Shown: positions 13,165 through 31,947 of the stretch, in pieces | How positions within the stretch are numbered: position 1 is the stretch's first letter | Layout: each line of letters begins with the position of its first letter | DNA from: Candidatus Bathyarchaeota archaeon | Lineage (GTDB): Archaea; Thermoproteota; Bathyarchaeia; Bathyarchaeales; Bathycorpusculaceae | Length of the DNA: 64,000 nucleotides | Direction of reading: 5' to 3' | NCBI GenBank assembly: GCA_963782525.1 | Contig: CAWAKC010000004.1 | Coordinates: 117,528-181,527 of the forward strand | Translations under genes and position numbers: made by a program | The notes under the pieces: generated by a model | The model's input: the letters and a program-made list of their open reading frames with translations, nothing else | What the model was told of the DNA's origin: nothing | The model's database searches: none

Positions 13165-13647
13165 GTGACTGAAAAGTTACATCCCTATGTAGTATTTCTT
13201 CCAAAAACAGAAAAAAAAGATAAGATACTCTCCGCCATATTCGGCAGCAAAGCTGGCGTCAACATCCTCCGCTTCTCACTTAAACAGGGCGTCGCCAAAA
13301 ACATCTACCAAAAAGACCTCGTCAAAACCCTCAACTACTCAAACAAAACCATAATCGAAAACCTCAAAACCCTCACCAAACTCGGCGTCCTAAACGAATC
13401 CATGGAAAAAAACGACAAAGAAGGCCGCATCATCTGGATCAAAATCTACCAACTCACCAACCTCGGCAAATGGTTCGCGCTGCTCATAGCAGAAGAAAAA
13501 GAACTCCCCGACACAGAAAAAGCCGAAATCCTCCAAAGCCTATTCCGCACCTACGTCAAGCAGGTGAAGCGTTTGGCTGAGGAAATTGGAATAAACAAGA
13601 AAATGCTCGAGGAAACATTCAGGGAAGAAATGAAAAGTAGTCAATAA
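13165..13647 (+). CDS. Winged-helix transcriptional regulator-like protein
   Basis: IYQKDLVKTLNYSNKTIIENLKTLTKLGVL HTH followed by a wing (WIKIYQLT); start uncertain (13144 or 13165). Confidence 0.7.
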   Translation: MTEKLHPYVVFLPKTEKKDKILSAIFGSKAGVNILRFSLKQGVAKNIYQKDLVKTLNYSNKTIIENLKTLTKLGVLNESMEKNDKEGRIIWIKIYQLTNLGKWFALLIAEEKELPDTEKAEILQSLFRTYVKQVKRLAEEIGINKKMLEETFREEMKSSQ

Positions 13648-13662
13648 GAACGATGTAAAAAA

Positions 13663-13905
13663 ATGAAAAAAATTAGAGTTAACTGATTCCGAAGGCAGAC
13701 TTACTCTGCCCATAGAAATAAAAAAAAACTTGGCGAAAACCTCACTCTAACAAAGACGCCAGAAGGCTACTTACTCACAAGCAAAGGATATGTCGCTAAC
13801 GAAGAAATCCAAAAAATAATACGCTCTAAGCACCGTAGAACAGGCAAACCCAAACTCGCAACTCCCAAGGAAATAAAATCCATTTGGAAAACAACCGTGG
13901 AATAA
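13663..13905 (+). pseudogene. AbrB/MazE-like DNA-binding protein interrupted by two homopolymer frameshifts
   Basis: Restoring the A-runs at 13666-13672 and 13720-13728 gives MKKLELTDSEGRLTLPIEIKKKLGENLTLTKTPEGYLLT..., with the D-x-x-GR-x-x-(L/I)P AbrB motif. Confidence 0.6.
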
Positions 13906-13959
13906 CCTGAAAAACACCATCCTACCCTACAAAGACCCAATAACCCAAAAGACCCTTCC

Positions 13960-13979
13960 GCACCGTTGAAAAACGGTGC
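13960..13979. terminator. Perfect 8-bp hairpin between convergent genes
   Basis: GCACCGTT-GAAA-AACGGTGC; followed on the other side by a T-rich tract read on the minus strand at the CBS gene end. Confidence 0.4.
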
Positions 13980-14007
13980 CTAAAACAAAAAAGAAAGAAA
14001 AAGAAGT

Positions 14008-15189: not shown

Positions 15190-15578
15190 AAATAATCACT
15201 GGAAAGCTAATATGAGACGTGAAATTTAAACATTGCAAACCCCTGCATGCATAGCAGCCAATAGAGCCATTATTAGAACTTAAACCTAAAATGGTATCTT
15301 CATAAGGTTTAGATGGCTACGAGATTTGGAGTCAATCGGGTGCGGTTTAGGGTTCTTCGTAACGGTTGTTTTACGGATAGTTGGGTTTCCTTGAGGTTTG
15401 AGTCAAGGTTTAATTTTGTTAATTGGCTAGCATGTTGTCTTGTTTTCTGTATTTTTACCTTGGGAAAGAGGGTTTTTCCAAGCAATATTTATATCAAAAG
15501 CACTTTATTCAAGTTTCTAACTAATTATTGTACGTTGGACTAATTTGTACCACGTATATTAAAATGGTGAACAAATAA

Positions 15579-16526
15579 ATGCCGTTAAAAACCATAAAGA
15601 AAGATGCGGCAGACGCTTTAACGTTAGAATGGGTTTTGCAAGTTAAAGATTACAAGTTAACTCTTGACAAGAACCGCTGTGTCGGCTGCCAAGTATGCAC
15701 GGTGGCTTGCCCAAAAGAAGCCATAAAAACCCAGAAGCAGCCAAAAATTCCGGGAGAAAAGGCAAAGAAAGCCAAAGTAGACATTGACTTGGCAAAATGC
15801 AATTTCTGCGGAATCTGCGACGTCACCTGTCCATATGGCGCAATTAAGGTTACTTTAAATGATTCACACAACCTGCCTATTTTGGAGAAAGATAGCTACC
15901 CACAGCTTGTCCGCGATATCGTCGTGGATACGCACAAATGTGAAAAAGAATGTGTCGAATGCGAAAATGCTTGTCCACTCAAACTCATAAAAATATCCAA
16001 AGTCGGCTTTGATGGCAACCCCGTTCAAGACATTACCGCGCTCTCTGCTAATGAGAAAAAAAGAGTTCAACTATCACTTGACATTCAAAAAGGCTATTGC
16101 CCTACATGCAAAATATGCGAAGTTAATTGTAAACCTGGCGCATTAAAAGTCAAAAAAGCATTCGAAGGAAAAATCAACATTGCCCAGGCGAAGTGTCCAG
16201 AAGGCTGCACCGACTGCTTAGATGTTTGTCCCATTCCAGGTGCACTCGTGGTTGGAGAAGACAAGAAAGTTCACGTTAACGAGACATTATGTACTTACTG
16301 TGGTGCATGCAAGAACGTTTGCCCAGTGGAAGAAGCGTTGTGTGTGAAACGCACCAAGGTTCTCCATACACCCATCCATTCAGGCACATGGAACAAAGCC
16401 TTAGAACGATTAACCAGCTCCGCTGACGCTGCTAAGGAACTAAAAGCCCAAGCCGCCGAGAACAGACGCAAAGTCGTTGAGAAACGATTCGTCTCTGAGG
16501 AGCTCAAAACTGAGGAATACAAATGA
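15579..16526 (+). CDS. Polyferredoxin (six 4Fe-4S motifs)
   Basis: CVGCQVC, CNFCGIC, CEKECVEC, CPTCKIC, CPEGCTDC, CTYCGAC, each followed by xxxC. Confidence 0.9.
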   Translation: MPLKTIKKDAADALTLEWVLQVKDYKLTLDKNRCVGCQVCTVACPKEAIKTQKQPKIPGEKAKKAKVDIDLAKCNFCGICDVTCPYGAIKVTLNDSHNLPILEKDSYPQLVRDIVVDTHKCEKECVECENACPLKLIKISKVGFDGNPVQDITALSANEKKRVQLSLDIQKGYCPTCKICEVNCKPGALKVKKAFEGKINIAQAKCPEGCTDCLDVCPIPGALVVGEDKKVHVNETLCTYCGACKNVCPVEEALCVKRTKVLHTPIHSGTWNKALERLTSSADAAKELKAQAAENRRKVVEKRFVSEELKTEEYK

Positions 16527-18982
16527 GTAATTCACAAACACCCACTAAACAAACAGAAACATGCGTTGCTTGCAAACCTGAAGAGTTTTTGCGAGTTGGC
16601 GTTTTCGTTTGCCACTGCGGCTTAAACATTGCAGGAACAGTAGACGTTAAAGCCGTAGCCGAATACGCCAAAACTATTCCAGACGTGGTTTTTGTTAAAG
16701 AAAACCGTTACACCTGCGCAGACCCTGGACAAGCAGAAATCCGCAAAGCCATCAAAGAACAAAACCTAAACCGTGTAGTCATCGCCGCATGCTCACCAAG
16801 AATGCATGAACCCACCTTCCGCCGAACAGTCTCTGAAGCAGGCTTAAACCCGTTCCTCTACGAAATGGCAAACATCAGAGAATTCGCTTCATGGTGCCAC
16901 CAAAGCGACCCCCAAGCCGCAACCGAACGAGCCAAAGACTCTGTACGCATGGCAGTCGCAAAAGTACGCCTGATGCAGCCTCTGCAAACCATCGAAGTTC
17001 CAGTTACCAACAAAGCACTTATCATAGGCGGCGGAATCGCAGGCATGAACGCAGCCTTAGATTTAGCCGAAATGGGCTACAAAGTCTACATGTTAGAGAA
17101 CACCCAGAGCATCGGCGGACACATGGCGGCACTCGACAAAACTTTCCCCACCCTCGACTGTAGCATCTGCATCGAAGGACCAAAAATGGTAGACTGCGCA
17201 CGTCACCCAAACATCACAATCTTCGCAAACTCAGAACTAGTCAAAGTTGACGGTTACATCGGCAACTTCAAAGTAAAAATACGCAAAAACGCCCGCTACG
17301 TCCTAACCGACAAATGCACAGGCTGCGGCGAATGCAAAGACGCTTGCCCAATCGAGTACCCCAACGAATGGGACATGAATTTGGGCACACGGAAAGCAAT
17401 TTCTGTTCCCTTCGACCAGACTGTGCCGCTGATTTACTCGATCAACCGCGATTACTGCATTGAATGCTTCAAATGCACGGAAGCCTGCGGCGAACGCCAA
17501 GCCATCGACTTCAACCAAAAACCTGAAGAAGTCGAGTTTGATGTGGGCGCAATCATCGTTTCCACTGGCTTTGATATTTACCTGCCCTATGACATGCCTT
17601 TGCTTGGCTACGGGAAATACCCCGACGTCATCACAAGCATGGAATTCGAACGATTAATCCTAGCCGCTGGACCCACAGGCGGCAAAGTTATCCGCCAATC
17701 CGACGGACAAAAACCACACAAAATCGTCTTTATCCAATGTGTCGGTAGCCGAGACAAAACCCACTACCCTTACTGCTGCAACTTCGGATGCATGTACACC
17801 CTCAAACACGTGGTACAGCTTAAGGAGAAGTACAAAGAAGACATAGAAGTCTACGTTTTCTACATGGACATCCGCAGTCCAGGCAAAGGCTACGAAGAAT
17901 TCTATGACCGCGCAAGGGAACGAGGCGTAAACTTCATTCGTGGACGAGTTAGCCGTATCGATGAAGACCCTAAAACCCACAACTTAACCGTTCACTCAGA
18001 AGATACACTGCTAGGGACACCCATCGAAGTTGAAGCCGACATGGTTGTTCTAGCAACTGCAGCTATACCCAAGAAAGGCTCTGAAGACATTGCTCGTATC
18101 CTTAACCTCTCAAGGGGTTCAGACGGCTTCTTCATGGAAGCACACCCCAAACTTAAACCCATGGATGCACCCACTGACGGAGTATTCTATGCCGGTGCAT
18201 GTGTAGGCTTAAAGGATATACCAGCCAGTGTTTCCCAAGGAAGCGGAGCAGCATCCCGGGCAGCAACAGTAATCAGCAAACCAAAATGGAAGATCGAACC
18301 CATCATCTCAGTCATTGACGAAACCAAATGCAAGAGTTGCGGTCTCTGCGTCGACAAATGTCCCTACGGCGCAATAAGGTTAGAAAAGCCAAAATCAGCA
18401 CAAATAATTACTGCAAGCTGTCATGGCTGCGGAACATGCGTAGCCGAATGCCCACAACACGCCATTACTCAAATGCACTTCACTGACGCACAAATCATAG
18501 CTCAAATCCGGGCGGCGCTTGAAGATAAGCCCGAAGAAAAAATCCTTGCCATCCTCTGCAACTGGTGCAGTTACGCAGGGGCAGACCTTGCAGGCATTAG
18601 CAGATGTGACTACCCAGCCAGCGTAAGAGCAATCCGTGTCATGTGCAGTGGAAGAGTTGCCAGAGAATTTGTTCTCGAAGCCCTCAGATTGGGTGCAGGA
18701 ATGGTTCTTCTCGGCGCGTGCCACTTACCATACGACTGCCACTACATCAGCGGAAACTACAAGATGAAAGCCCGTACTGATGCCCTCAAAGGTATGCTGA
18801 CCAAATTGGGTATGAGCCCCGAGCGGTTCCGAGTAGAATACGTTTCAGCAGCAGAAGGCATCCACTACGCTGAAGTAATCAAGGAAATCGATGCTGACAT
18901 GAAGGCTTTGGGTAAAGAGAAGATTCAAGCAGAAAACGCCAAGTTAAAGCCAATTCTTGAAAACATGCTTAAACGCAAATAA
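16523..18982 (+). CDS. hdrA: Heterodisulfide reductase subunit A fused to MvhD
   Basis: VGVFVCHCG, ACSPRMHE, GGGIAG FAD motif, LDKTFPTLDC, CVGSRD, CCNFGCM; C-terminal CNWCSYAGAD/RVMCSGRV/CHY MvhD domain. Confidence 0.95.
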   Translation: MSNSQTPTKQTETCVACKPEEFLRVGVFVCHCGLNIAGTVDVKAVAEYAKTIPDVVFVKENRYTCADPGQAEIRKAIKEQNLNRVVIAACSPRMHEPTFRRTVSEAGLNPFLYEMANIREFASWCHQSDPQAATERAKDSVRMAVAKVRLMQPLQTIEVPVTNKALIIGGGIAGMNAALDLAEMGYKVYMLENTQSIGGHMAALDKTFPTLDCSICIEGPKMVDCARHPNITIFANSELVKVDGYIGNFKVKIRKNARYVLTDKCTGCGECKDACPIEYPNEWDMNLGTRKAISVPFDQTVPLIYSINRDYCIECFKCTEACGERQAIDFNQKPEEVEFDVGAIIVSTGFDIYLPYDMPLLGYGKYPDVITSMEFERLILAAGPTGGKVIRQSDGQKPHKIVFIQCVGSRDKTHYPYCCNFGCMYTLKHVVQLKEKYKEDIEVYVFYMDIRSPGKGYEEFYDRARERGVNFIRGRVSRIDEDPKTHNLTVHSEDTLLGTPIEVEADMVVLATAAIPKKGSEDIARILNLSRGSDGFFMEAHPKLKPMDAPTDGVFYAGACVGLKDIPASVSQGSGAASRAATVISKPKWKIEPIISVIDETKCKSCGLCVDKCPYGAIRLEKPKSAQIITASCHGCGTCVAECPQHAITQMHFTDAQIIAQIRAALEDKPEEKILAILCNWCSYAGADLAGISRCDYPASVRAIRVMCSGRVAREFVLEALRLGAGMVLLGACHLPYDCHYISGNYKMKARTDALKGMLTKLGMSPERFRVEYVSAAEGIHYAEVIKEIDADMKALGKEKIQAENAKLKPILENMLKRK

Positions 18983-19054
18983 GCAATTTCCGCTGCCTTC
19001 TTTTTCTTTTTAAGTTTTTGCCTATTAGCTACTCGTGGTAGAATAGTTGTCTTG

Positions 19055-19720
19055 TTAGAACTGTTTTCTCTCAAACAAAGCTACCGCCGCCAACAGCAAC
19101 ACCGTAGCTACAATTGCCGCTAACACAATTGTAAACACAGCAGCCTCTTGAACGTTAAGCAACGTTGGCAGTAACGGTATGACTGAAATCTGGTTTCCTC
19201 CATAGATAACTAAGATGGCTCCGATGAGAACTGATGGCGAGGCCACTCCGATTAGTACGCCTGCCGCACATGAAACCGCAATCATCGACAGGCTCGTTGC
19301 CAAAGATTGCCCTGCGTTGTTCAAAATTGCATTAGACAAGGTGCCTGTAGAGGCATAATCCGTTATCATCCCAGCTAACACTGCGATGCCGCTCGCGATG
19401 GCTACGCAAGTGTATACTGAGAAGAATTTTGCCAGTAGAATATCTCTTCGTTTGAGGGGGCGGATCAAGAAGAGGTCGTAGACGTGCCTGTTTTTTTCGT
19501 TGATTATGAATACAGCAAGCATTACTGCAGCTAAGGTGCCGCCGATACTTGAAACCACCAAAGCAGAGATAAGTGTAAATGAAAGACTCTGCCCCGTACT
19601 GCCCTCTGAGAGAGGGCGGAACAGCAACGCAATAACGGGTAAGCCAACCCATAGGAAAATCATAACTTTAGACTTGTAGAAGCCCCGTAGCTCATCTACA
19701 AAAAGAAGACCTGTCTTCAT
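19055..19720 (-). CDS. ABC-2 type exporter permease
   Basis: Six TM segments, EK...LFLIRPLKRRDILLAKF motif, coupled to the ATPase gene. Confidence 0.88.
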   Translation of the reverse strand: MKTGLLFVDELRGFYKSKVMIFLWVGLPVIALLFRPLSEGSTGQSLSFTLISALVVSSIGGTLAAVMLAVFIINEKNRHVYDLFLIRPLKRRDILLAKFFSVYTCVAIASGIAVLAGMITDYASTGTLSNAILNNAGQSLATSLSMIAVSCAAGVLIGVASPSVLIGAILVIYGGNQISVIPLLPTLLNVQEAAVFTIVLAAIVATVLLLAAVALFERKQF

Positions 19721-20685
19721 TAGTTCTCAGCCTCCGAAACATAGTTAAGGTAAATTTCATCCAGCGAAGGCTCCAGCAACGAGACGCCCCGTACACGAAG
19801 GCCCAACTTGACTATGCTTTGAACTATGTCGTTAACAACTTGGTCATCATCTGCCTCTGATTCCAAATGGACAAGGATTCTTCCCGGCGTAGGTTGCTCA
19901 ACGATCTTTACGTTTTTGATTGCACCAAATTGTTGCCATTTATCGCTAACAAACGAAAGCAGCACCTGAACGGTCTTTTGGGATACTAAGCGGTTTTTTA
20001 ACTCGTTTAGTGTGCCGACTTGCTTGATTTTTCCGTGGCTGATGATGCCGATCCTGTCGGCGACATCTTGCACGTCGCTTAGGATATGCGAAGAAAATAG
20101 GCTGGTAGTCCCCTTTTTAGCCAACTTCAAGACAATCTCTTTAAACTGGAAGCGACTCAGCGGGTCCAATCCGCCCAGTGGCTCATCCAAAACCAAAAAC
20201 TTTGGCTCATGCAAAAGGGCCTGTGCCAACCCCACCTTCTGCACCATACCTCCAGACAACTGCGAAACCTTTTTGTGTTGTGCTTCGGCTAATCCGAGTA
20301 AACCCAAAATTTCGGGGATACGTTCTTCAACTTTTTGGTCGCTGAGACCTGAGAGTTTCCCAAACGTTGTAAGTGCTTGGTCGACGGTGCGCCACTCTTG
20401 GAAAGCTACACTCTGAGGCAGGTAACCGAGAAGTTTGTGGATTTCGTCTTTTCTTTTGGGCACCTGGTAGCCGCCTATCGAAACTTCACCTTGAAAATCG
20501 GTGATTAAGCCCACAAGGATTTTCATGGTTGTTGTTTTTCCAGCGCCGTTTGGACCGATGTAACCGAAGATTTCCCCTTCTTTAATATCAAAGGACACAT
20601 CGTTTAGGGCGGGGAAACCGCCGAAGCTTTTGGCAAGGTTGCGGATGACGACGAATTCATTGGTGTTGTTGGGGCTGCTGGTCAT
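19720..20685 (-). CDS. ABC exporter ATP-binding protein
   Basis: GPNGAGKTT, LSGGM, LVLDEP, SSH. Confidence 0.95.
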   Translation of the reverse strand: MTSSPNNTNEFVVIRNLAKSFGGFPALNDVSFDIKEGEIFGYIGPNGAGKTTTMKILVGLITDFQGEVSIGGYQVPKRKDEIHKLLGYLPQSVAFQEWRTVDQALTTFGKLSGLSDQKVEERIPEILGLLGLAEAQHKKVSQLSGGMVQKVGLAQALLHEPKFLVLDEPLGGLDPLSRFQFKEIVLKLAKKGTTSLFSSHILSDVQDVADRIGIISHGKIKQVGTLNELKNRLVSQKTVQVLLSFVSDKWQQFGAIKNVKIVEQPTPGRILVHLESEADDDQVVNDIVQSIVKLGLRVRGVSLLEPSLDEIYLNYVSEAEN

Positions 20686-20859
20686 GTTGGTTCACGCTGG
20701 TTGCTTTATCTTTTTTGTGGGGTTACCATTTAAGTTTTTCAGTTTGAAACAGCTAATACCAACTACCGCTCTTAGAGTTTTTCTAAAAAATGGTTATTTT
20801 TTCAGTGTAAATATTTTTACGGGTGCCTGCTCAAGTATTGGTTTACTGCCTAGCAGGGT

Positions 20860-20887
20860 GGGGTTGTAGTCTAGACAGGTATGACGA
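20860..20887 (+). pseudogene. Orphan tRNA 5' fragment (acceptor 5' strand plus D-arm), tRNA-Trp-like
   Basis: GGGGTTG TA GTCT AGACAGGT ATGAC G; near-identical to the 5' end of the tRNA-Trp; followed by ATACCTG, an inverted copy of CAGGTAT. Confidence 0.6.
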
Positions 20888-21098
20888 TACCTGACAGAAT
20901 TTCTGCAACACCTACCAGAATTTTTCAGCCCTTAGGGCTCAATTTAGAAATAGAAACAGTACTATTCTTAGCCACGTCAGACGAATGGATAAGCAAAGTA
21001 TCCTATAGCTTAGAAGAAGAACGCTACTATTCGAAGCAGGCTTTCAATTAGTTAGAAGGTAAAAGAAATAAAAGCACTCTATAAGAAAAGAAAATAAA

Positions 21099-21238
21099 TG
21101 GTGGGGCTGATCGGATTTGAACCGATGACCAACGGGTTTCCCCAAAGTAGACCGCTCCAGAATTTCGTCATCCCCTAACGGGTCAAGCAATCAATGCTTT
21201 CTGGAGCCCGCCGTACTACCTGGCTATACTACAACCCC
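21099..21238 (-). tRNA. tRNA-Trp(CCA) with 63-nt intron at 37/38 (intron 21138-21200), CCA encoded
   Basis: GGGGTTG/CAGCCCC acceptor, GCGGG-CT-CCA-G anticodon arm, ATCGG-TTCAAAT-CCGAT T-arm; BHB with CTCC/GGGG helix and AGA and AAA bulges; T-rich tract downstream. Confidence 0.96.
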
Positions 21239-21267
21239 ACGTTATTTTTAGAAAGATACGAGAAGAA

Positions 21268-21276
21268 TTATAAAAA
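21268..21276 (-). promoter_or_regulatory. TATA box of tRNA-Trp
   Basis: TTTTTATAA about 30 nt upstream of G1. Confidence 0.55.
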
Positions 21277-21433
21277 GGCACCTACCAAAATAAGAAACGA
21301 AAATAGGGTGAGTCATTTCCGCTCCGCATGCGCTCCATCAACAAACCCCAAAAATTTTTTGCCCCCAGGCAAGCAGAGACAGAGAGAAACACCGAAACAA
21401 AACAAGAGACACAGAAAGAACTAAGGCTAATGG

Positions 21434-21592
21434 CAGGTATGACGACGGGCTCTGAAAGCAACCATACAACGGGTTTGCTGACTCCGCGAGGAGAATGACG
21501 AATTTCCGGAGCGGTCATGAAGAAACCCGTAAACTTTGGCTTAGCGCCATCGTTGGGTAAAGGTCGTCCGTTCAAATCCGGCCGGCCCACCA
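21434..21592 (+). pseudogene. 5'-truncated tRNA-like gene (Trp-like body) with two BHB-type introns (about 21456-21524 and 21531-21560)
   Basis: CAGGT ATGAC G ACGGG CT CTG A...A CCCGT [intron] AGGTC GTCCG TTCAAAT CCGGC CGGCCC A CCA; second intron has ACCC/GGGT helix, GTA and AAA bulges and AAC/GTT outer helix; no acceptor 5' strand directly upstream. Confidence 0.78.
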
Positions 21593-21624
21593 CAAAGCTG
21601 GCAGATTTCTACAAAAAATAGTTT

Positions 21625-22158
21625 CTAAAGGTCTACGCCCATGTTCTCGATTAACCTATCTAAGGCTTTAGTACTCATCATTTCAGTTTGAAGATAAACC
21701 CGAATTTCAGCAGCGCTAAATCCGATGCGTTTAGCTTCTTTCACAGCGTAGCGGTATGCTTCAATTTCTGTTGGTCTGTCAGCATAGTCGTAGCGGGGAT
21801 CAAACAATTCTCTTCCGTCCATATGCTGCTTCACATGGCAAAGTTCATGGACAATGTCGAGATATATGTCCTGTTTGCGTCCAGTGCTTAGGTAACGTTT
21901 GTTTACGAGTAAGTGTCCGTCGCTGTCGTCGACACCCATGTATCCAAACCAGATGAAATCTACTTTGAGGTTTTTGAGAACTTGCTCGGTTTCTTTCCCA
22001 AATATTCCTTGGACAGCATGGTTTTTTTCAAAGCCCCGAAAATAATCTGTAAAATTTGCTTTCCGCGAAACCAGATGAATGATTCCCCTCAAGGGCAGCT
22101 TAGTGAACAGGCGAAAAATTCGCATCATTATGTATTCTGTTGCGTTTTGGAATGACAC
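21625..22158 (-). CDS. Putative zincin-like metallopeptidase
   Basis: IVHELCHVKQH (HExxH) with downstream TEIEAY. Confidence 0.65.
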   Translation of the reverse strand: MSFQNATEYIMMRIFRLFTKLPLRGIIHLVSRKANFTDYFRGFEKNHAVQGIFGKETEQVLKNLKVDFIWFGYMGVDDSDGHLLVNKRYLSTGRKQDIYLDIVHELCHVKQHMDGRELFDPRYDYADRPTEIEAYRYAVKEAKRIGFSAAEIRVYLQTEMMSTKALDRLIENMGVDL

Positions 22159-22320
22159 AGAAAGTATCCTACCCGAAGTTTGTATAGGCGCAGATTTTTA
22201 GCGAATCCAAGTCTTAGCACCGGCAGATGCTTCATGTACCGAGTTTTAATTTAAAATACTTTTCCAAAGACAGCGTAGCAACACAGAATGGCATGGAAGA
22301 CTTAGTCTGCGCCAGAGATT

Positions 22321-22581
22321 TTAGAAGAAGCCATTTTCAGACTCTTCGTGTCTTTCCTTGTATTTCTTTACGATTTGCGCAACAAAATCGTCGGCGCATC
22401 TTCCCTGCTTGGAGCAGTTTCGACAGGCTTTTGGCACTGAGATGATAACAGCCGCATTGCCTAGAAAATAGTCGATTCTTAGGTTTCTTATTTTGCATTT
22501 TTTTATCGCGCGATTTGGCTGAACGGTGGTTATACCGAATTTTGCCTTTGCCTCAACTAATTCTTTGAAGAGTTCACCCAA
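22321..22581 (-). CDS. Small hypothetical protein with CxxC-x4-C
   Basis: 86 aa, TTG start, CRNCSKQGRC; start uncertain. Confidence 0.4.
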   Translation of the reverse strand: MGELFKELVEAKAKFGITTVQPNRAIKKCKIRNLRIDYFLGNAAVIISVPKACRNCSKQGRCADDFVAQIVKKYKERHEESENGFF

Positions 22582-22983
22582 AAAAGTCGTCCCTTGCGAT
22601 TTGAAAAATCCACGAAGTATCCGTCTCCGAGTTTTTTGATTATTGGCTTTTTCTCTCCTTGAAACGTAGTATTGGCAAACAAAAGTGGTTTTGTAGATTT
22701 AAAATGTTGTGGTTGTATACAAACAATCACAAACCTAAAAAAATTAGGAAAAAATGCTACATCTTAACAATTTTTAGCCACTACAAAAGCCTCGCGTATT
22801 TTTTGATGGTTCTCTAAAACATTCACGACCTCGTGAGCTTCAAGTTTAGTGGATAATGAAGTATTTGGGACAACTAAAATTCCCACGGTCGCGGCTACGA
22901 ACCTAAACATGCAGATGACTCCCTCTCATTGAGTATACCTTTTAAGCAGCCGCATCGTAAGGTTTGCGAAGAAGAGATAATCA

Positions 22984-23925
22984 ATGCCATCAATAGAAGC
23001 AATTAATTTAACAAAACAGTACGGCGCATTCACAGCTCTCTCAGATTTAAACTTGAAGATTGAGGGAACAAAATGCGTCGGTTTCCTTGGACCTAACGGG
23101 GCAGGAAAAACAACCGCTCTAAAAATGTTCACCGACCTGATCAAACCAACCAAAGGGCAAGCACTCATAAACGGCGTAAACGTGCACACCCACAAGAAAA
23201 AAGCACTTGAATGCGTTGGCACACTTATTGAAACTCCAGAAATTTATTCATCACTTACGCCAAGAGAAGCCTTAACGATGATTGCGGAAATACGGGGAAT
23301 TCCACATGCTGAGAGAAAAAAACGAGTGGAAGAAGTTACTGCGGAATTGCGCATGGAAGAGTGGATTGATAAGCGTGTAGGCAAGTTTTCTAAGGGCATG
23401 AAACAGCGAATCTGCATTGCCTCTGCATTACTAGGTGACCCAGAAGTGATTCTTTTAGATGAACCCACCACAGGGCTTGACCCGCGAGGCATGAGTGAAG
23501 TCCGCGATATCATCAAAGGGCTCAAAGGCAAAAACCGCCTAATATTCATGAGCTCCCACATTCTAAGCGAGGTTTCTGATGTCTGTGATGAAGTTGCCAT
23601 GATAAACCATGGCAAACTTATCGTTTACGACACCCTGCCTCATGTGACCGCAAAGTTTTCAGGCGGAAACAACATCGTCGAAGTTGGATTGGTGCGTCCA
23701 GTAGACATACAAATCGTAACCCAAACCATCGCTGCCTTGCCAGATGTGGTTACTGCCGAAAAAATAGGCGACAAAGACCTCAAGATAAGTTTCAGTGGGG
23801 GTTTAGCTGTGCAGGAACGTCTCCTAAACAACATAGTTAAACTTAACATTGGTGTTGTAAGCTACAAAGCTGCGTCATCTGAACTTGAAGATGTATATCT
23901 TAAACTTATAACCGCTACGTTGTGA
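22984..23925 (+). CDS. ABC exporter ATP-binding protein
   Basis: GPNGAGKTT, FSKGMKQR, LLDEPTTGLDP, SSH. Confidence 0.95.
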   Translation: MPSIEAINLTKQYGAFTALSDLNLKIEGTKCVGFLGPNGAGKTTALKMFTDLIKPTKGQALINGVNVHTHKKKALECVGTLIETPEIYSSLTPREALTMIAEIRGIPHAERKKRVEEVTAELRMEEWIDKRVGKFSKGMKQRICIASALLGDPEVILLDEPTTGLDPRGMSEVRDIIKGLKGKNRLIFMSSHILSEVSDVCDEVAMINHGKLIVYDTLPHVTAKFSGGNNIVEVGLVRPVDIQIVTQTIAALPDVVTAEKIGDKDLKISFSGGLAVQERLLNNIVKLNIGVVSYKAASSELEDVYLKLITATL

Positions 23926-24785
23926 TAGTTATGACCCAAACAAACTTTGAATCAAAAAATGTTGTACCAAGCAGTATTGCCCAGGTAGGCATAATCACCA
24001 AGTACACTCTACTTGACTACATAAGGTCCCGTCGCTTCTTTATTATGCTGATTATAACAGCGCTGATAAGTGTGCTTCTCACGGTTCTTGTGGGATATTA
24101 CCGTCCAGCTGGCTTTCTAACGTCTGAGCTTGGCTTCTACAGTAGCTGGTGGGGCACCTCAGTTACGTTTGTGATTATTCTTTCCGGAATTTTCTTTGGC
24201 GGCGATGCAATTTCAGGTGAATTCCAAAACAAAACAGGGTACTTTGGAGTGCCAAACCCCATCAGGCGGTCATCCATCTATATAGGAAAATGGATCGCAG
24301 CCTTTATAGCGTCAATCGCCATCCTTGGTGTATTCACAGCTGTCACATTAGGGAACGGCTTATACTATTTCTCAGGTGTGCCCTATCAATTCGGTGAGTC
24401 ACTGCTGTTCGCATTGCTATACCTTATTGCTGTTCTTGGCTTCACATTCTTCTTTAGCTCACTTTTCAAAAGCAGCTCCATGTCTATCCTGCTTACGGCG
24501 ATACTGTTCCTGTTCGTCTTCACACTAATACAACAACTTGTCGCTGGGCTTGTCCAAATTGAGCCTTGGTTCATCTTGACATATGGCTCCCAAATCATCG
24601 GCAACGTATTAACATCGCCCTATCCACCCCACATAACCACAACCAGCCTACGTCCTGGCGGTGGCGGACCCACACTAACAACATACAACGCAACAATCCC
24701 CGAAGGACTCGCAATCATGGCAATATACTTCGCTGTCACCGCAATCTTAGGCTTGATTCTCTTCGAAAGAAAAGAATTCAACTAA
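23922..24785 (+). CDS. ABC-2 type exporter permease
   Basis: ISGEFQNKTGYF...PIRRSSIYIGKW motif, multiple TMs, GTGA overlap with the ATPase. Confidence 0.9.
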   Translation: MIVMTQTNFESKNVVPSSIAQVGIITKYTLLDYIRSRRFFIMLIITALISVLLTVLVGYYRPAGFLTSELGFYSSWWGTSVTFVIILSGIFFGGDAISGEFQNKTGYFGVPNPIRRSSIYIGKWIAAFIASIAILGVFTAVTLGNGLYYFSGVPYQFGESLLFALLYLIAVLGFTFFFSSLFKSSSMSILLTAILFLFVFTLIQQLVAGLVQIEPWFILTYGSQIIGNVLTSPYPPHITTTSLRPGGGGPTLTTYNATIPEGLAIMAIYFAVTAILGLILFERKEFN

Positions 24786-24793
24786 ACCAAACG

Positions 24794-24821
24794 GTCGGTT
24801 CAAATCCGACCTACCCCACCA
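24794..24821 (+). repeat. Orphan tRNA 3' fragment (T-arm, acceptor 3' strand, ACCA); att-like
   Basis: GTCGG TTCAAAT CCGAC CTACCCC A CCA, 8 nt after the permease stop; 23 of 28 positions match 21566-21592 in direct orientation. Confidence 0.75.
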
Positions 24822-24991
24822 ACATTAACACAAAATTTTCCTTGAACTAAGTAAAAGCAGGAAATTTAATAACGGTATAGATTTTATCATTTGTAAGGAT
24901 CATGAGTGCGGAAAAAAACCATTCAAGCCAGGGCTACTTAGGCAGCATTCAGAAAGACTTCGCCAATTTCGCTAAGCAACAATGCATTAAG

Positions 24992-25576
24992 TTATGTCTT
25001 GACGGTTTTTAGCCACTCTAAAAAGCCCTCACGCACCTTCGCAGGGTTCTCAAACACACGCACATCTTCAGTGCCTTCAAGCCTTCGTACCTGCTCGGCT
25101 TCTTCTTTGCGTACACGAATTTTCATTTCTTTACCGTTGGGCAGTTTGGTTAAGATGACGCTTTCTTTGTAGTCTACGGGCATGATCCAGACAGGCACAA
25201 ATGCTTTAAGGCTCATCAGCGCCGAGTTTGTGAGCAGGGTGTCGCCGATGCCGTTGACCAGTTTCGCAACGGTGTTTGAGGATGTGGGCATTATGAGGAG
25301 GAACTTGTATTTGTGGTTCTGCATCATGCCTGCGAGGAAGGGCGAATTCGAATTTAATTCAACAAATACTTTGGCGAAACTTTTCTTTAGCTCCTCGTCG
25401 AGGTGGTAGAATTTGAGCATGGTTTCGCCTGCTTTAGAGATATAAACATCAATTTCTACTGTGTCTTCGGATTGTTTTTTGAGGTCTTTCATGACTTCGA
25501 TGATTTCTGCGATTTTGTCGCCTGCACCCGTAATTCCCCATGCAACTTTGAGTTTCTTAACTTTAACTTCCGCCAT
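24992..25576 (-). CDS. afpA: Archaeoflavoprotein AfpA-like (HFCD flavoprotein family)
   Basis: VAWGITGAG, ISKAG, PTSSNTVAKLVNGIGDTL, WIMPVD. Confidence 0.8.
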   Translation of the reverse strand: MAEVKVKKLKVAWGITGAGDKIAEIIEVMKDLKKQSEDTVEIDVYISKAGETMLKFYHLDEELKKSFAKVFVELNSNSPFLAGMMQNHKYKFLLIMPTSSNTVAKLVNGIGDTLLTNSALMSLKAFVPVWIMPVDYKESVILTKLPNGKEMKIRVRKEEAEQVRRLEGTEDVRVFENPAKVREGFLEWLKTVKT

Positions 25577-25585
25577 AACATTCAC

Positions 25586-26179
25586 CTATTGTTTTTTGCC
25601 GTAGAGCTCCAGGTACTCTGCGAACCGTTTAGTGGTTTTTTTGAGGCTCCGGAAGCCCTCCTCATCCAACTTGACGCCATCCAACGTGTCCTTAGACCAA
25701 AAGGTTGCGCCTAGGTTTGCGCCGAAGAATCCGCCGCCTACCCCAATCATTCCATTTATCACGAAAAAGTTGTGTATCTGCATGAGGGCAAATTCTTGGC
25801 CGCCGTTGCGGTCGCCGCCGCATACGATGCCCATGCCAACTTTGCCTTTGAAAAAGTTTTTGTCTGCGGCAACTGCTGCGCGCATTCGGTCCATGACGGC
25901 TTTGGTTTGGGCACTGACGCCGCCATTGTAGACTGGCGACGCAAAGATGATGCCTTGGGCTCCCGTTAACAGGGCATAGAGTTCTTGGAGGTCATCTTGT
26001 ACAACGCATTCCTTGTTTTTTAGGCAGTAATCGCAGTGTGCACAGTAATCCACCCATTTGCCACGGACAGTCCAGAGCTTGGTCTCATAGCCCTTTTCGG
26101 CGAGCGTTTTTAGGGCTTCTTCTAGGACGTGTTCGGTCGATTGTTTTCTTGGGCTACCGCAAACTCCAACAATCAGCAT
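25586..26179 (-). CDS. Iron-sulfur flavoprotein (Isf)/flavodoxin family
   Basis: GSPRK, CAHCDYC-x5-C, ASPVYNG, GGDRNGGQE. Confidence 0.88.
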   Translation of the reverse strand: MLIVGVCGSPRKQSTEHVLEEALKTLAEKGYETKLWTVRGKWVDYCAHCDYCLKNKECVVQDDLQELYALLTGAQGIIFASPVYNGGVSAQTKAVMDRMRAAVAADKNFFKGKVGMGIVCGGDRNGGQEFALMQIHNFFVINGMIGVGGGFFGANLGATFWSKDTLDGVKLDEEGFRSLKKTTKRFAEYLELYGKKQ

Positions 26180-26312
26180 AAGCAGTCACTAATGGGTAAC
26201 TTGGGGTTTGCTTTAAGTATTCCCCTTTTGAAAAAATAAGGCATTAATTAAAACAAAAACTCAAAAATTTAAAAAACGAAAATAAGAAAAGAGAAAATTA
26301 GGAGAAAGAAGA

Positions 26313-28529
26313 TTATTCTTTCTCGAAGTATTCTTCTGGTTTTGGCGGAGTTGGTGGTAAGCCTCTGCGTTCACGAATCTTCTTTATGGTTTCAGCCTGC
26401 ATCTGCTCTGGAACATATGCCCAACGAGCGAACTGTGTGGCCCAAAATGCTCTGCCTGAAGTTGAACCGCGTAATTCATCAGCTATGCCAAAACTTTCAG
26501 AGACTGGCATTTCTGCTTTAACGGTAATTATGTCATCTTCTGAGGGCATGTCGAGGATTTTGCCACGGCGTTTGTTTAGCATTGTGATGACGGCGCTGAC
26601 ATATTCGCTTGGAACTTTGCATTCGAAGCTCATCAATGGCTCAAGTAGTTTTGGATCGCTCAAGAGAATAGTGCAGTAGATTGGTCTCCAAGTCATGGGG
26701 ATAGCTTGTGCTGGTCCACGATGAACGGGGTCTTCATGTAAGACGATGTCTTCAAGGTTAATCTTTAAGCCGTATGCTGGCTCTTTAGCGAGCGGTGAAG
26801 TGTGTACGGCTTCGCGGAAACCAGTTTTGATGTGGTCGAGGATTTCTTCTACATATTGGCGTCCGCGGATACGGTTAACGAGTATGCAGTTTTCTTCAAC
26901 GGCAACTGCGCCTTTGGCTTCTTCTGGTGACCAGCCGAGTGCGCGCAAAGTTTTGGTACGTTCATCTCTGCTTTGCATGTCAGTGATTTTTTCAGACTTA
27001 ATTGCTTCAATAACTTCCTCAGATAATTTGTCGATGGTTATCCAGAGTTTGTTGTGTTTGTTGGGGCTTTTACCCATGATTGCTGGTCCTTTGTAGTCAT
27101 GGCTTATTGTTTCTCTGAAGATGACGATTGGTTTGCTTAATTTTACTTTTAAGCCTGCTTCTTGCATTCGATATGCGGTGATTTCAAGGTGAAGTTCGCC
27201 CATTCCTGAGAGTAGGAATTCGCCGCTTTCTTTGTTCATGACGAAGTGCAAGTTGGGGTCTTCTGTTGTGAGTTTATGCATGACTTTGTCGAATAGTGGT
27301 AGGTCTTTGACGTCTTCTGGTTCAACTGCGACGGTTACGACGGGGTCGGAAACGTAGTTTAAGCCTTCAAAAGAGTGGACTTCTTGGCCTTCTTCAGCGA
27401 TGGTTTCGCCGACGTGGATAGATGGAAGACCCGAAATGGCTCCGATGTTGCCTGCAGGAACACGGTCAATAAGCACTCGGTCTGTTGCCATACTCATGAA
27501 GACCTGTTGAATAGTGCCTTTTTGGTTGCTGCTTAAAAGCTGAACGGTTTTGCCTCTCTCGATTGAACCGCTGAAAATTCTGCCGATTGCAACTGTTCCG
27601 CTGTGTGGGTCAACTTCGATGGTGGAGATGCACATGAGTAAGGGTGCTTTAGGATCGACTTTTGCCATTCCTTGTCCTGTTGGGCTGGATACGTCGCCTG
27701 GCCAAATTTGAGGTTGCCTGTAGGGTTGAGCTTCATAGGGGTTTGGAAGATGTTTAACGAACATGTCCAAGATAGGTTCTGGAAGAGGCGCTTTTTTGCT
27801 GAGTTCATCGACTTTTCTGCCGACTTCAATTGGGTCACCTGAGTAAGCATCGATGATGTCTTGGAAGGAGACTTTCTTCATTTTCATATGATCAAGGTTT
27901 AAGCCCCATTTGTGAAGGGCTGACCCAAATGCCACACGACTATCTTCAATTGTTACTTGCCAATCTTTCTTGTGCTCGGCAGGTGCATATTTCTCGATTA
28001 AAGTATTAACTCTTAGGAGAATCTTTGCAAATTTCTTCTGGATTTCTTGTGGGGAAAGTTTAATTTCTTTGATTAAACGGTCAACTTTGTTGATAAATAG
28101 AATTGGCTTTACACGTTCTCTTAGGGCCTGCATTAGGACGGTTTCGGTCTGGGTCATTGGTCCCTCAACTGCATCTACGACAACAAGTGCGCCGTCAACT
28201 GCTCGCAAACTTCTTGTTACAGCTCCTGAAAAGTCAATGTGGCCAGGGGTGTCGATTAAGTTGATTAAGTAATCTTTTTCTTGGTAAGTGTGGACTAAGC
28301 TGACGTTTGAGGCGAAGACAGTCATTTGACGTTTCTGCTCAAGGTCCCATGAGTCAAGGAACAGTTTCTGTCCTGCCGTTTGGGTACTGATGATTCCTGC
28401 CGCTGCCAGAAGACTGTCAGCCAGGGTTGTTTTTCCATGGTCAACATGGGCGATGATGCTCGTGTTGCGTACGAAAATTGGGGTTTCCATTAGTTTCACA
28501 ATTTCTTCCGTTTGCCTGTAACGCGCCAT
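26313..28529 (-). CDS. Translation elongation factor EF-2 or EF-2 paralogue
   Basis: AHVDHGKT, DTPGH, NKVD, LSGMGELHLE, HEDPVHRGPAQ, LRGSTSGRA; switch I reads RQMT instead of RGIT. Confidence 0.93.
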   Translation of the reverse strand: MARYRQTEEIVKLMETPIFVRNTSIIAHVDHGKTTLADSLLAAAGIISTQTAGQKLFLDSWDLEQKRQMTVFASNVSLVHTYQEKDYLINLIDTPGHIDFSGAVTRSLRAVDGALVVVDAVEGPMTQTETVLMQALRERVKPILFINKVDRLIKEIKLSPQEIQKKFAKILLRVNTLIEKYAPAEHKKDWQVTIEDSRVAFGSALHKWGLNLDHMKMKKVSFQDIIDAYSGDPIEVGRKVDELSKKAPLPEPILDMFVKHLPNPYEAQPYRQPQIWPGDVSSPTGQGMAKVDPKAPLLMCISTIEVDPHSGTVAIGRIFSGSIERGKTVQLLSSNQKGTIQQVFMSMATDRVLIDRVPAGNIGAISGLPSIHVGETIAEEGQEVHSFEGLNYVSDPVVTVAVEPEDVKDLPLFDKVMHKLTTEDPNLHFVMNKESGEFLLSGMGELHLEITAYRMQEAGLKVKLSKPIVIFRETISHDYKGPAIMGKSPNKHNKLWITIDKLSEEVIEAIKSEKITDMQSRDERTKTLRALGWSPEEAKGAVAVEENCILVNRIRGRQYVEEILDHIKTGFREAVHTSPLAKEPAYGLKINLEDIVLHEDPVHRGPAQAIPMTWRPIYCTILLSDPKLLEPLMSFECKVPSEYVSAVITMLNKRRGKILDMPSEDDIITVKAEMPVSESFGIADELRGSTSGRAFWATQFARWAYVPEQMQAETIKKIRERRGLPPTPPKPEEYFEKE

Positions 28530-29166
28530 AATTAATCAATCTCCAATTTAATTGAATTTATTACTTGAAAGACTTGTTTTTTAATTATTTGAAGCATTAT
28601 TCACTCTCTCATGAAACGGTAAACTACATGGAAAGTGAGTTTGTAGCCTATTAACTTTATGGCATGATTCCATAAAAATAATTGAGGCAAAAAATACCTC
28701 TTTATTTGCTCCAGACATGATTTTACTGAGAGAAAATCGGTTTGTGATTAATTTTGCTAAGTAGCTAGCGGTTAATTGGGCTTCGCAAGTTGGTAAAGCC
28801 TAATTCGCAAAAAAGAATAAATCTATTTTATTTTTCTATTTAGCGAAGAATTCGGAGCTTAAAGGAGCAAAAAAAGTTAAATGACTGAAGAATCACTTGC
28901 ATATAATTCATCATTCTGCTTCATTTCTTTCGAGTTAAAGACTGCTTTCTCTGCGATTAGTTTAAATGCAACAATCGACAATAAACAAAAATTAAATTGC
29001 CAAAATTGGCGAAGTAAATTTAACCGCTGAGGATAAGAATGCACCTTCAAACAGTTCCAGCACATGAAAATAATGGATTGTTCCAGGATTCCTTAGCTCC
29101 GGTCATCTTTGCTTTTAGTCGGGGTTGTTACTAACACATCTTTACTGAGGTTTTGGCGGAATAAGA

Positions 29167-31947
29167 TTGGAAAAAGCTGCTTCTTTGCCGATTGACAAGG
29201 TTTTCGATGACCTAAACACATCAGCTAACGGATTAACAAGCGAAGAAGCTAAACTGCGACTAAAAAAATATGGCTACAATAAGCTTTCCGAGAAAAGGAA
29301 AATTCCATTTATACACAAGTTTATCTATCATCTTAGAGATTTATTCGGCATTTTGTTGTTAGTGGCAGCAGTCTTATCTTATATTAGTGGAAGTCCCGAA
29401 CTTGCCCTCATCATCCTTGCAGTAGTTTTGGTAAACATTTTCGTCAGCATCTTCCAAGAATCGCGTGCAGAAAAAGCTATGGAAACCCTCAAAAGCTGGA
29501 TGCCTGAATATGCCAAAGTTATCCGAGACGGCGAACTCAAGAAAATCTCAGTTAGAGAAATTGTTCCAGGCGACGTAATTTTCCTTGAAGAAGGCGACCG
29601 GGTTCCCGCGGACGCCAGATTAATTGAAGCTTTTGATTTATGGACAAATAATGTTCCGTTAACTGGAGAATCTGAACCGCAGCCACGTGTTGCTGAAGCC
29701 GTCAAAGTTGTTGAAAAAGCCTACTTGTATTCAGCTAACCTTGTTTTCATGAGCACCAGCGTTGCAAAGGGTCAAGGGAAAGCAGTTGTTTACTCTACAG
29801 GCATGGAAACGCAATTTGGAAAAATTGCAAGTTTAACCCAGACTATTAAGGAAGAGGAAAGCCCGCTTCAGAAAGAAATCGCCTTGACAGCAAAGTATGA
29901 TTTTATCATTGCCGTGGTTGTAGGTACAATTTTCTTTATCGCCAGTTTTCTTTTTCTCCATGTTCCCCTTGCCACAAGCATCTTTTTCATGATTGGTGTT
30001 ATGGTTTGTTGTGTTCCTGAAGGTTTGCAGGTTACAGTTTCCAGCGCCTTAGCTATCAACGTTCTAAAAATGGTACGGCAGAATGTTGTTGTTAAACGGT
30101 TATCTGCCGTGCAAACTTTAGGCAGTGTAACCGTTATCTGTACGGACAAAACAGGTACAATCACCAAAGGCGAAATGACCGTAAACAAACTATGGGTCTT
30201 CGATTACGTGGTGGACGTTTCTGGTTCAGGCTACATGCCTGAGGGCGATTTCACTATAAACGGTGAGCCACTGCAAAAAGGACAAACGGCTTCTTTGGAG
30301 AAGCTACTGGAGATTGCTGCTCTTTGCAACGGGGCAAAGCTTGATCCACCTTCAGATAAAAACCGAAATTGGAATGTTATCGGTGACCCAACCGACGGCG
30401 CATTGCTTGTTGCCACACTTAAGTCAAACGTGAACATTCAGGATGCTTTAGCTGCGAAACCGATTCTGGATGTTTTGCCCTTCAGTTTCGAACGAAAACG
30501 CATGACAACTGTTCACAAACTTAACGGTAACGTCTTAATCTATACTAAGGGTGCCCCGAGAAACATACTTGACGTCTGCAGCAAAGTGCTCGTTGACGGC
30601 AAAATCGTCGAATTAGACCAGGAAAAAATGAGTTGGATTGAATCTAGAATCCACGAATTCGCTAATGCAGGACTGCGCGTTATAGCTGTTGCTTACCAGC
30701 AAATACCCAAGAGCGAGTACAAGAAGGGCATAGAAGTCGAAAACAACCTTATCTTTGTCGGTTTAGCAGGAATGCGCGACCCTCCAAGAGCCGAAGTAAA
30801 GGATGCTGTTGAAAAAGCAAAACAAGCAGGAATAAAAACAGTGATTATTACAGGCGATTATGGTCCAACTGCACAATCAATAGCTCAAGACGTAGGCATA
30901 GTGGCGAAAGATTTTGCCCAAGTTATCCGCGGCATTGACCTTGAAGAGTTAAACGACCAAGCCATAGTAGATGAGGTCAAAAAAGGTGACGTGATTTTCG
31001 CTAGAGTTTCTCCTGAACAGAAACTCCGTATAGTTAAGGTTCTTAAGAATAGCGGTGAAGTTGTTGCGGTTACGGGTGATGGAGCAAACGATGCGCCATC
31101 ACTTAAGGAGGCAGACATTGGCGTGGCCATGGGGGCGTCTGGAACGGATGTTGCCCGAGAAGCCGCAGACATCGTGCTGTTAAACGACAGTTTTGCTTCA
31201 ATCGTTAAAGCGGTTGAATCTGGCAGAGCCATTTACGAGAACATCCGCAAATTCATCGTTTACGTGTTCAGCCACAACTGGGCAGAACTCATCCCATACG
31301 TCCTTTATGCGGTGCTGGCTATTCCATTGCCGCTGCTTGTGGTCCAAGTTTTAGCCATCGACTTAGCCATAGACGTTATCCCTAGTTTAGCTCTCAGTCG
31401 TGAACCTCCAGAAGCAGGAATAATGGAGGAATCCCCGAGAAGCCTCAAAGAAAGATTGTTCACAGGCAAAGTCTTTGGGCGTTCACTCTTCATTGGCGTA
31501 ATCATCGCAGCTGGAGCAATGTTCGGATGCTTAAGCGCTTGGATGGCAGGAGGCTGGCACTACGGTATGGTTTTAACATCTGATAGCTCATTCTACACGA
31601 GCGGCGTTTATGCTAAAGGAGTAACGATGACGTTTGCAGGCATCGTGGTTGCTCAAGCTGGAAACGTTTTAGCATGCCGAACCAGCAGACAATCAATTTT
31701 TAGAACAAGCCTGAAAACCAACAAATGGATAATTGCTGGTATAATATCACAGCTTTCCATCTTGGCATTCATAGTTTATGTTCCACTAATGCAACATGTC
31801 TTCGGCACCGCCGCACTAGGCTTAACAGATTGGCTATTCCTGATTTCGCTGGCGCTGGCAGTTGTGTTCGCTGAAGAAATCCGAAAGTTCTTTGTCAGAA
31901 GATTCGGAAAAACTGCAGAGGATCCAAGTAAACATGACCACACATAA
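29167..31947 (+). CDS. P-type cation-transporting ATPase, type II
   Basis: TGES, PEGL, DKTGT, KGAP, MRDPPR, TGD, GDGANDAP. Confidence 0.96.
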   Translation: MEKAASLPIDKVFDDLNTSANGLTSEEAKLRLKKYGYNKLSEKRKIPFIHKFIYHLRDLFGILLLVAAVLSYISGSPELALIILAVVLVNIFVSIFQESRAEKAMETLKSWMPEYAKVIRDGELKKISVREIVPGDVIFLEEGDRVPADARLIEAFDLWTNNVPLTGESEPQPRVAEAVKVVEKAYLYSANLVFMSTSVAKGQGKAVVYSTGMETQFGKIASLTQTIKEEESPLQKEIALTAKYDFIIAVVVGTIFFIASFLFLHVPLATSIFFMIGVMVCCVPEGLQVTVSSALAINVLKMVRQNVVVKRLSAVQTLGSVTVICTDKTGTITKGEMTVNKLWVFDYVVDVSGSGYMPEGDFTINGEPLQKGQTASLEKLLEIAALCNGAKLDPPSDKNRNWNVIGDPTDGALLVATLKSNVNIQDALAAKPILDVLPFSFERKRMTTVHKLNGNVLIYTKGAPRNILDVCSKVLVDGKIVELDQEKMSWIESRIHEFANAGLRVIAVAYQQIPKSEYKKGIEVENNLIFVGLAGMRDPPRAEVKDAVEKAKQAGIKTVIITGDYGPTAQSIAQDVGIVAKDFAQVIRGIDLEELNDQAIVDEVKKGDVIFARVSPEQKLRIVKVLKNSGEVVAVTGDGANDAPSLKEADIGVAMGASGTDVAREAADIVLLNDSFASIVKAVESGRAIYENIRKFIVYVFSHNWAELIPYVLYAVLAIPLPLLVVQVLAIDLAIDVIPSLALSREPPEAGIMEESPRSLKERLFTGKVFGRSLFIGVIIAAGAMFGCLSAWMAGGWHYGMVLTSDSSFYTSGVYAKGVTMTFAGIVVAQAGNVLACRTSRQSIFRTSLKTNKWIIAGIISQLSILAFIVYVPLMQHVFGTAALGLTDWLFLISLALAVVFAEEIRKFFVRRFGKTAEDPSKHDHT

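Follow-up and report, generated by a model that had tools for sequence, protein, structure and literature searches.

Integrations of mobile elements into archaeal and bacterial tRNA genes are reported to restore an uninterrupted tRNA gene, the pTN3 type included (Badel et al., 2021, PMC8371274). In the pTN3-like integrases of Thermococcales, attB lies in the tRNA gene's 5′ half and attP inside the integrase open reading frame (ORF), and the integrase is split (Cossu et al., 2017, as reviewed in PMC8371274). The nearest described case to ours is tRNA-Thr(GGU) of Caldiarchaeum subterraneum, where the integration of a recombinase element at positions ∼24–27 left behind a 5′ fragment and brought in an additional intron (Sugahara et al., 2012, PMC3293823). 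Here, we analyze a 64,000-nt stretch from a Candidatus Bathyarchaeota archaeon (assembly GCA_963782525.1, contig CAWAKC010000004.1, positions 117,528–181,527), hereafter the window. Very probably, its resident tRNA-Trp gene, named type B, has been split by a small integrase-encoding element that carries a complete tRNA-Trp gene of its own, named type A, and has since decayed, while a third tRNA-like piece further downstream arose separately.

The genome holding the window (G000; other G numbers denote genomes of relatives) is a metagenome bin of 2.87 Mb in 12 contigs, with 43% G+C and 2.7% contamination. By direct reading of positions 20700–21800 and 24700–24950, we found three tRNA-like pieces on the forward strand (Table 1), and the first two share an exact 12-mer, CAGGTATGACGA. 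A preliminary description had placed the pieces and the repeat correctly, but it had taken all three pieces for one scattered tRNA. Instead, pieces 1 and 2 together are the two halves of a single gene, the resident tRNA-Trp(CCA), and piece 3 is an older B-type remnant attached to an ABC permease gene. Pieces 1 and 2 are contiguous, overlapping by exactly the 12-mer, in G010, G001, G022, G030, G025, and other genomes. The type B gene has an intron of ∼60 nt at 37/38 and a second one of ∼30 nt directly after the 3′ strand of the anticodon stem; the helix of the second intron covaries between species. Intact type B genes occur in at least 16 genomes of the same genus and also in other families of the order. 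The latter makes type B the ancestral form, and pieces 1 and 2 represent the one tRNA-Trp(CCA) gene that this Bathyarchaeota lineage had ancestrally.

Relatives were searched twice, with positions 20840–21620 against 60 genomes and with the 546-bp insert genus-wide. The empty site that the preliminary description had suggested looking for is present in G010 and in others. G010 is collinear with positions 12003–31508 of the window at 89–91% identity, and the sole difference at the locus is that it lacks 20888–21433 (546 bp) and one of the two copies of the 12-mer. Hence the proposed insertion of ∼0.55 kb into a tRNA gene, with a direct repeat of the att type and an intact reversed tRNA-Trp inside, is borne out by the relatives. 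The same 12-mer at the same tRNA position flanks an insert of 2064 bp in G130 and one of 4543 bp in G068, which are independent assemblies, and the attL side of the element is also found in G107 and G106. In all three inserts the core stands at both ends, as in integrative elements, and it occurs once in the empty site. As rebuilt from the junctions, attP reads …CTAAGGCTAATGG-CAGGTATGACGA-TACCTGACAG…. The core of the element reads CAGGTA-TGACGA-TACCTG, with CAGGTA and TACCTG forming a dyad around TGACGA. Such an arm–spacer–arm layout is typical of the core sites of tyrosine recombinases.

Contrary to the preliminary description, which saw no remaining integrase, the insert contains a deleted and frameshifted integrase remnant, and the full gene of the relatives starts within the repeat. 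In G068 and G107, uninterrupted integrase ORFs of 329 and 324 aa, respectively, open 6 nt before the ATG of the core (cagGTATGACGA) and match PF00589 with E-values of 6e-19 and 7e-21 (model positions 5–169 of 172). The core overlaps only the first 7 nt of the ORF, ATGACGA, and the integrase is not split by integration in either genome, as it would be in suicidal elements of the SSV type. In the window, residues 1–30 (77% identity) are in frame with residues ∼274–299, forming a 56-codon ORF (20881–21051), and are followed by residues 304–311 and 313–324 in two other frames; the terminal KKRK-stop and the reversed tRNA-Trp, which has its 3′ end on this side, are 1 nt apart. Residues ∼31–273, and with them the whole catalytic domain, are deleted in this copy. 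From its sequence, we read the insert at 20888–21433 as a decayed tyrosine-recombinase element, a relic and not an active one. Integrase remnants also abut the 3′ end of a tRNA-Trp of type A or a related type in G002, G097, G129, G106, G117, G074, and G063, and are present at none of 16 type B loci. They thereby mark the non-B tRNA-Trp genes as element-borne.

The type A gene is the sole intact tRNA-Trp in the 2.87-Mb genome according to ARAGORN -i and to an RF00005 scan. In default mode, ARAGORN found no tRNA in the window, the tRNA-Trp being recovered only with introns allowed. An Rfam scan of 20500–25200 with E up to 10 yielded this gene as the only match, which spans 21102–21238, with the CCA extending to 21099. 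The gene is 97–100% identical in ∼17 relatives, and the integrase gene runs towards it in convergent orientation. The type A D arm, CAGGTAGTACGG, departs from the core at four of the 12 positions, and therefore the cargo gene should not be a target itself. The TATA-like box ∼30–40 nt upstream is kept in G000, G023, G002, G011, and G012 despite differing flanks, and is likely the type A promoter. Up to attR, the right arm is 87% identical to that of the G130 element. Repeats CGCTCC / GCTCCGC are present in the right arms of G000 and G130 and also just past the stop codons of related integrases (L108, L109, L111), and may be arm-type binding sites; they are absent from the right arm of G068.

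Three types of tRNA-Trp exist within this one genus, namely B with two introns (GGGGTCG…), A with one intron (GGGGTTG…GTAGTAC), and C with one intron (GGGGTAG…; D arm CAGGTATTACGA), and they are patchily distributed across the EF-2 tree described below. By reading, the type A intron contains GATGACGA and then TTCTGGAGC, the complement of GCTCCAGAA, and the type B intron additionally has ACGGGTTT-G-CTGA, complementary to AAACCCGT. In tRNA-Trp of the Haloferax type, the 37/38 intron has C/D-like boxes together with a guide whose sequence is complementary to that of the anticodon loop. No box C/D model exceeded the threshold in the Rfam scan of the locus. In G068, a 55-nt 3′ fragment of a type C tRNA-Trp (L093, G068:C22, ∼5105–5181; 96% identity) lies between the integrase and the type A gene, which suggests nested or serial integrations within this 4.5-kb element.

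The promoter region upstream of piece 1 is conserved compared to G010. Pieces 1 and 2 differ from the functional gene of G010 at five of 186 positions, and three of the differences are disabling. In the anticodon loop, CTCCAGA has become CTCTGA with the loss of the CCA anticodon; in the T stem, GTCGG has become GTCCG, yielding a C–C mismatch; and the acceptor strand, CGGCCCC in G010, is shortened by 1 nt to CGGCCC. With these changes, the split resident gene is now a pseudogene. The pairing partner of the piece 1 acceptor is the acceptor strand of piece 2. The six-of-seven pairing of GGGGTTG in piece 1 with CTACCCC in piece 3, noted earlier, does exist in the sequence and is incidental.

We propose the following course of events. 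A small integrative element would recombine with the D-arm sequence of a type B gene via the 12-bp core, which in the element carries the start codon of its tyrosine-recombinase gene. This integrase would catalyze the reaction and, after integration, would be expressed from the promoter of the tRNA gene. As only 12 bp are shared, the target would not be rebuilt, and integration would leave a 28-nt 5′ stump at attL and a headless 3′ part at attR. The junctions in the window have this form: at attL, 28 nt of tRNA are followed by the integrase, and at attR, the non-tRNA sequence …CTAAGGCTAATGG is followed by tRNA positions from 17 to the end. The loss would be compensated by the complete one-intron type A tRNA-Trp of the element with its own TATA box. 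Later, the window copy lost integrase codons ∼31–273 and is frozen at 546 bp, the split resident gene has decayed, and the cell would have come to depend on the tRNA-Trp of the element.

Table 1. Features of the tRNA-Trp locus and its surroundings (positions in the window).
Feature	Position	Strand	Description
Piece 1	20860–20887	+	GGGGTTGTAGTCTAGACAGGTATGACGA; positions 1–28 (acceptor 5′ strand, D arm) of type B tRNA-Trp
attL core	20876–20887	+	CAGGTATGACGA; contains the integrase start ATG at 20881
Integrase remnant	20881–21097	+	Found by tblastn with the G107 and G068 integrases; stop codon TAA at 21095–21097
Type A tRNA-Trp(CCA)	21099–21238	−	One 63-nt intron after position 37, encoded CCA; RF00005, 51.1 bits; ARAGORN with introns
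Right arm	21239–21433		Putative tRNA promoter, two CGCTCC repeats (∼21320–21338), end …CTAAGGCTAATGG
TATA-like box	21267–21278	−	CTTTTTATAATT; upstream of the type A gene
attR core	21434–21445	+	CAGGTATGACGA
Piece 2	21434–21592	+	Remainder of the type B gene, from the 3′ part of the D arm to CCA, with both introns, the second at ∼21531–21560
HExxH ORF	21625–22158	−	177 aa, HELCH motif; no significant Pfam match
ABC ATPase	22984–23925	+	PF00005
ABC-2 permease	23922–24785	+	PF12679
Piece 3	24794–24821	+	GTCGGTTCAAATCCGACCTACCCCACCA; B-type tRNA-Trp relic comprising T arm, acceptor strand, and CCA; begins 8 nt past the permease stop codon

Several points weigh against this account. Taken alone, the 12-mer repeat is within chance: four 12-mers are repeated in the 4.4-kb region, while 500 first-order Markov resamples have 1.0 on average, and 56% of them have at least one. 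As a repeated 12-mer in 4.4 kb is thus unremarkable, the case rests on the comparison with relatives. A free or circular form was not found, and the predicted attP was absent from IMG/VR and from JGI metagenome contigs, which does not prove the absence of such a form; the IMG/VR search with the attP junction produced two chance matches on GC-rich DNA. Moreover, other members of the integrase family adjoin tRNA 3′ ends in the ordinary fashion, and the adjacency of the integrase and tRNA-Trp could be a relic of an ordinary 3′-end integration that was captured later. Paralogs in the genus (40–50% identity) are convergent to tRNA-Leu, tRNA-Ala, and tRNA-Pro genes, including one at C6:36014–37294 of the window genome, and near the closest other integrases (G092, G138, G026, and G008; 50–59% identity) no tRNA-Trp sequences were found. 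Finally, with regard to the number of integrations, the species tree is that of a single gene, EF-2, and the shortening of the acceptor C-run from four to three, seen in both G000 and G023, could be a mutation inherited from one old insertion.

The EF-2 nucleotide tree of 45 genomes places nearly all type A genomes (all but one), including those with A in B, in one clade of 19 with support 99, in which G068 branches first. G010, in which type B is intact, groups with G000 as its sister (support 94), and G001, also of type B, is likewise nested in the clade. This distribution, together with a junction that is identical throughout and the possibly shared shortening of the C-run, would fit one ancient insertion in the ancestor of the ∼19-species clade followed by vertical descent, with type B having returned in G010 and G001 through either excision or homologous replacement from an outside source. 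We consider this unlikely. The same shortening of the C-run has occurred independently in G007. The earliest-branching G068 has an intact integrase and no defect in the exons of piece 2, and G130 shows mild changes only. Compared to the type B gene of G010, piece 2 has four differences at 156 positions in G000 and 16 in G023, with no further changes in common, and pieces 1 and 2 of G000 together are, as said above, still close to a functional gene. G023 is the closest element-bearing relative, yet its type A flanks do not align with those of G000, whereas the flanks in G106, G002, and G130 align with the latter at 87–92%. The flawless type B genes of G010 and G001 could not have come from halves that had been without selection ever since the clade arose. 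For that reason, from a single-gene tree and short sequences, we prefer a model in which site-specific integration was repeated, or in which excision and re-integration alternated, to a single ancient event.

One more observation concerns the target site. In G031, the type B gene (L016, G031:C8, 8377–8601) contains an extra 52 nt at ∼8403–8454, exactly within the att core (CAGGTATGAC[52 nt]GACGGGC), that is, where the attB of the element would be disrupted. The extra sequence is absent from the sister genome G019, and no other tRNA-Trp was seen in G031. It is probably a third intron; folding it revealed no clear bulge–helix–bulge motif.

A transposon-type or repair-mediated insertion, under which a transposase would have generated the 12-nt repeat by duplicating its target site or a microhomology-mediated event would have left it, is very improbable. 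It is true that 12 bp is short for an archaeal att site and that the window has no functional recombinase. However, the insert lacks terminal inverted repeats, inserts of three different lengths are bounded by the same 12-mer at the same position of the tRNA, the PF00589 integrase gene starts inside the repeat, and the core has the dyad described above. There is hardly any chance that the locus is an assembly artefact in which the bin merges a type B strain with a type A strain. The contig number and contamination of this metagenome bin would allow for it, and G108 does show two strains, but both junctions recur in the independently assembled G130 and G068 and, in part, in G106, G107, and G023, and piece 2 has the pseudogene changes predicted by a real disruption. 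Finally, a split tRNA with pieces 1, 2, and 3 transcribed separately and joined at bulge–helix–bulge motifs, which the preliminary description rightly held to be unlikely, is barely credible: the lineage does have non-canonical tRNA introns (two in type B and probably three in G031), and the TACCTG that follows piece 1 is complementary to the CAGGTA with which piece 2 begins, but the overlap is a direct repeat and not a pair of complementary leaders, piece 2 has lost its anticodon and has a T-stem mismatch and a shortened acceptor, among the relatives piece 2 is further decayed in G023 and missing in G002, G011, and G012 and piece 1 is missing in G023, and a complete tRNA-Trp sits between them.

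The genus has a second, different route by which a resident tRNA-Trp has been replaced. In G005 (L020, G005:C35, 9804–10789), a reversed type C tRNA-Trp is followed by a 194-aa LAGLIDADG ORF (PF14528, E = 1.4e-7), which ends 7 nt before a type B 3′ fragment starting at the anticodon (TCCAGAAAGC). G007 (L042, G007:C35) has a type B fragment with the same breakpoint and no endonuclease. A homing endonuclease was considered for the window locus as well, and was rejected, since tblastn with the LAGLIDADG ORF of G005 found nothing similar in the insert or its neighborhood.

Piece 3 has its own history. It is identical to the 3′ end of intact type B at 25 of 28 positions, and none of the other tRNAs of the genome matches it better. 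Its reported match to the 3′ end of piece 2 at 23 of 28 aligned positions holds, with one gap. Eight genomes have the permease gene, and in each of them its stop codon is followed by a relic derived from tRNA-Trp, which in G019 and G031 is ∼150 nt long, begins within the anticodon loop, and takes in both introns of type B. Piece 3 is a separate, older relic, the decayed right-hand copy of a duplicated tRNA-Trp 3′ part, and this duplication travels with the ABC genes. A relic extending from the anticodon loop to the 3′ end has the usual form of an att duplication, and hence the ABC pair was probably brought in or moved by an older element, an event from which no integrase remains.

The preliminary description had further proposed a second insertion of ∼3.2 kb, bounded by pieces 2 and 3 and holding the HExxH protein and the ABC exporter. 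The relatives do not agree with these boundaries. G130 and G002 lack the block 22269–24991, that is, the ABC pair and piece 3, but retain the HExxH ORF, and in G012 and G137 the ABC block is on the opposite side of that ORF. The HExxH ORF is the chromosomal neighbor of the type B 3′ end and stands beside the type B remnant in G130, G012, and G137. The ABC block is flanked by a 27-nt direct repeat (22762–22788 and 24997–25023; 81% identity; ∼70 nt by comparison with G002), which is a partial duplication of the 3′ end of a flavoprotein gene.

Elsewhere in the window genome, at G000:C6:36014–37445, a full 426-aa integrase of the same family with an N-terminal zinc ribbon is convergent with tRNA-Pro(GGG), and at G000:C11:105335–105637, a C-terminal integrase remnant adjoins tRNA-Cys, with 13–20-nt repeats of the tRNA-Cys 3′ end 2–7 kb downstream; both loci look like ordinary 3′-end integrations. 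ARAGORN with introns called 46 tRNA genes genome-wide, among them no tRNA-His and no tRNA-Leu(TAA/CAA/CAG), which are probably multi-intron genes that it overlooked. Its giant-intron tRNA-Val and tRNA-Arg calls elsewhere in the genome were discarded as spurious: they cover coding-looking sequence with unrecognizable tRNA halves, and are not split genes.

It is possible, though we would stop short of calling it probable, that these loci represent a Bathyarchaeota family of very small elements that break the single-copy tRNA-Trp at the D arm and supply a substitute, that repeated integrations have replaced the two-intron gene across ∼19 species, and that the insert of G031 is a host-side answer or a scar. 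If so, the host could not lose the element once the halves had decayed, and the G031 insert would be a direct case for introns shielding tRNA genes from integration. More generally, the locus offers a concrete, dated route by which mobile elements alter the intron number of an essential tRNA gene and scatter tRNA fragments, which bears on the long-running question of how disrupted archaeal tRNA genes arose. It also hints at how a minimal element may make itself indispensable to the host. Annotated tRNA fragments in such genomes may be read as att scars, and G068 and G107 supply candidate attP/attB/integrase sets for a phylum without genetic tools.

Compared to the known systems, the locus combines familiar traits in a different way. 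The split tRNAs of Nanoarchaeum equitans and the tri-split tRNAs of Caldivirga maquilingensis (PMC3218864 and general knowledge) likewise have tRNA gene pieces dispersed in an archaeal genome, but there complementary leaders form the splice motifs and the pieces are the only source of the tRNA, whereas here they are decaying leftovers beside an intact gene. Like the pNOB8-type elements, this one has a PF00589 recombinase that remains intact after integration and adjoins a tRNA gene. However, in those elements the tRNA 3′ end serves as att and the gene is rebuilt, while here the adjacent tRNA is cargo, and the att core lies in the D arm of a different tRNA-Trp allele. With the pTN3-like elements it shares attB in the tRNA gene's 5′ half and the possibility that part of the integrase gene is transcribed from the tRNA promoter after integration, but the core covers only the beginning of the ORF and leaves the integrase uninterrupted, and the tRNA stays broken.

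The Caldiarchaeum tRNA-Thr comes closest, as there, too, a recombinase element hit the D-arm region and left a 5′ fragment, and close relatives have alleles that differ in intron number. In that case, however, the element provided a new 5′ part with an intron and a contiguous gene was rebuilt on the same strand, while here only 12 bp are shared, nothing is rebuilt, and the gene is replaced by a complete second tRNA gene on the opposite strand. A non-exhaustive full-text search of the literature turned up no account of an integrating element breaking a tRNA gene while carrying a full replacement. The element belongs to the tyrosine-recombinase integrative elements. What sets it apart is that, contrary to the rule of restored targets (PMC8371274), it leaves its target broken and brings as cargo an entire replacement gene that differs in intron content.

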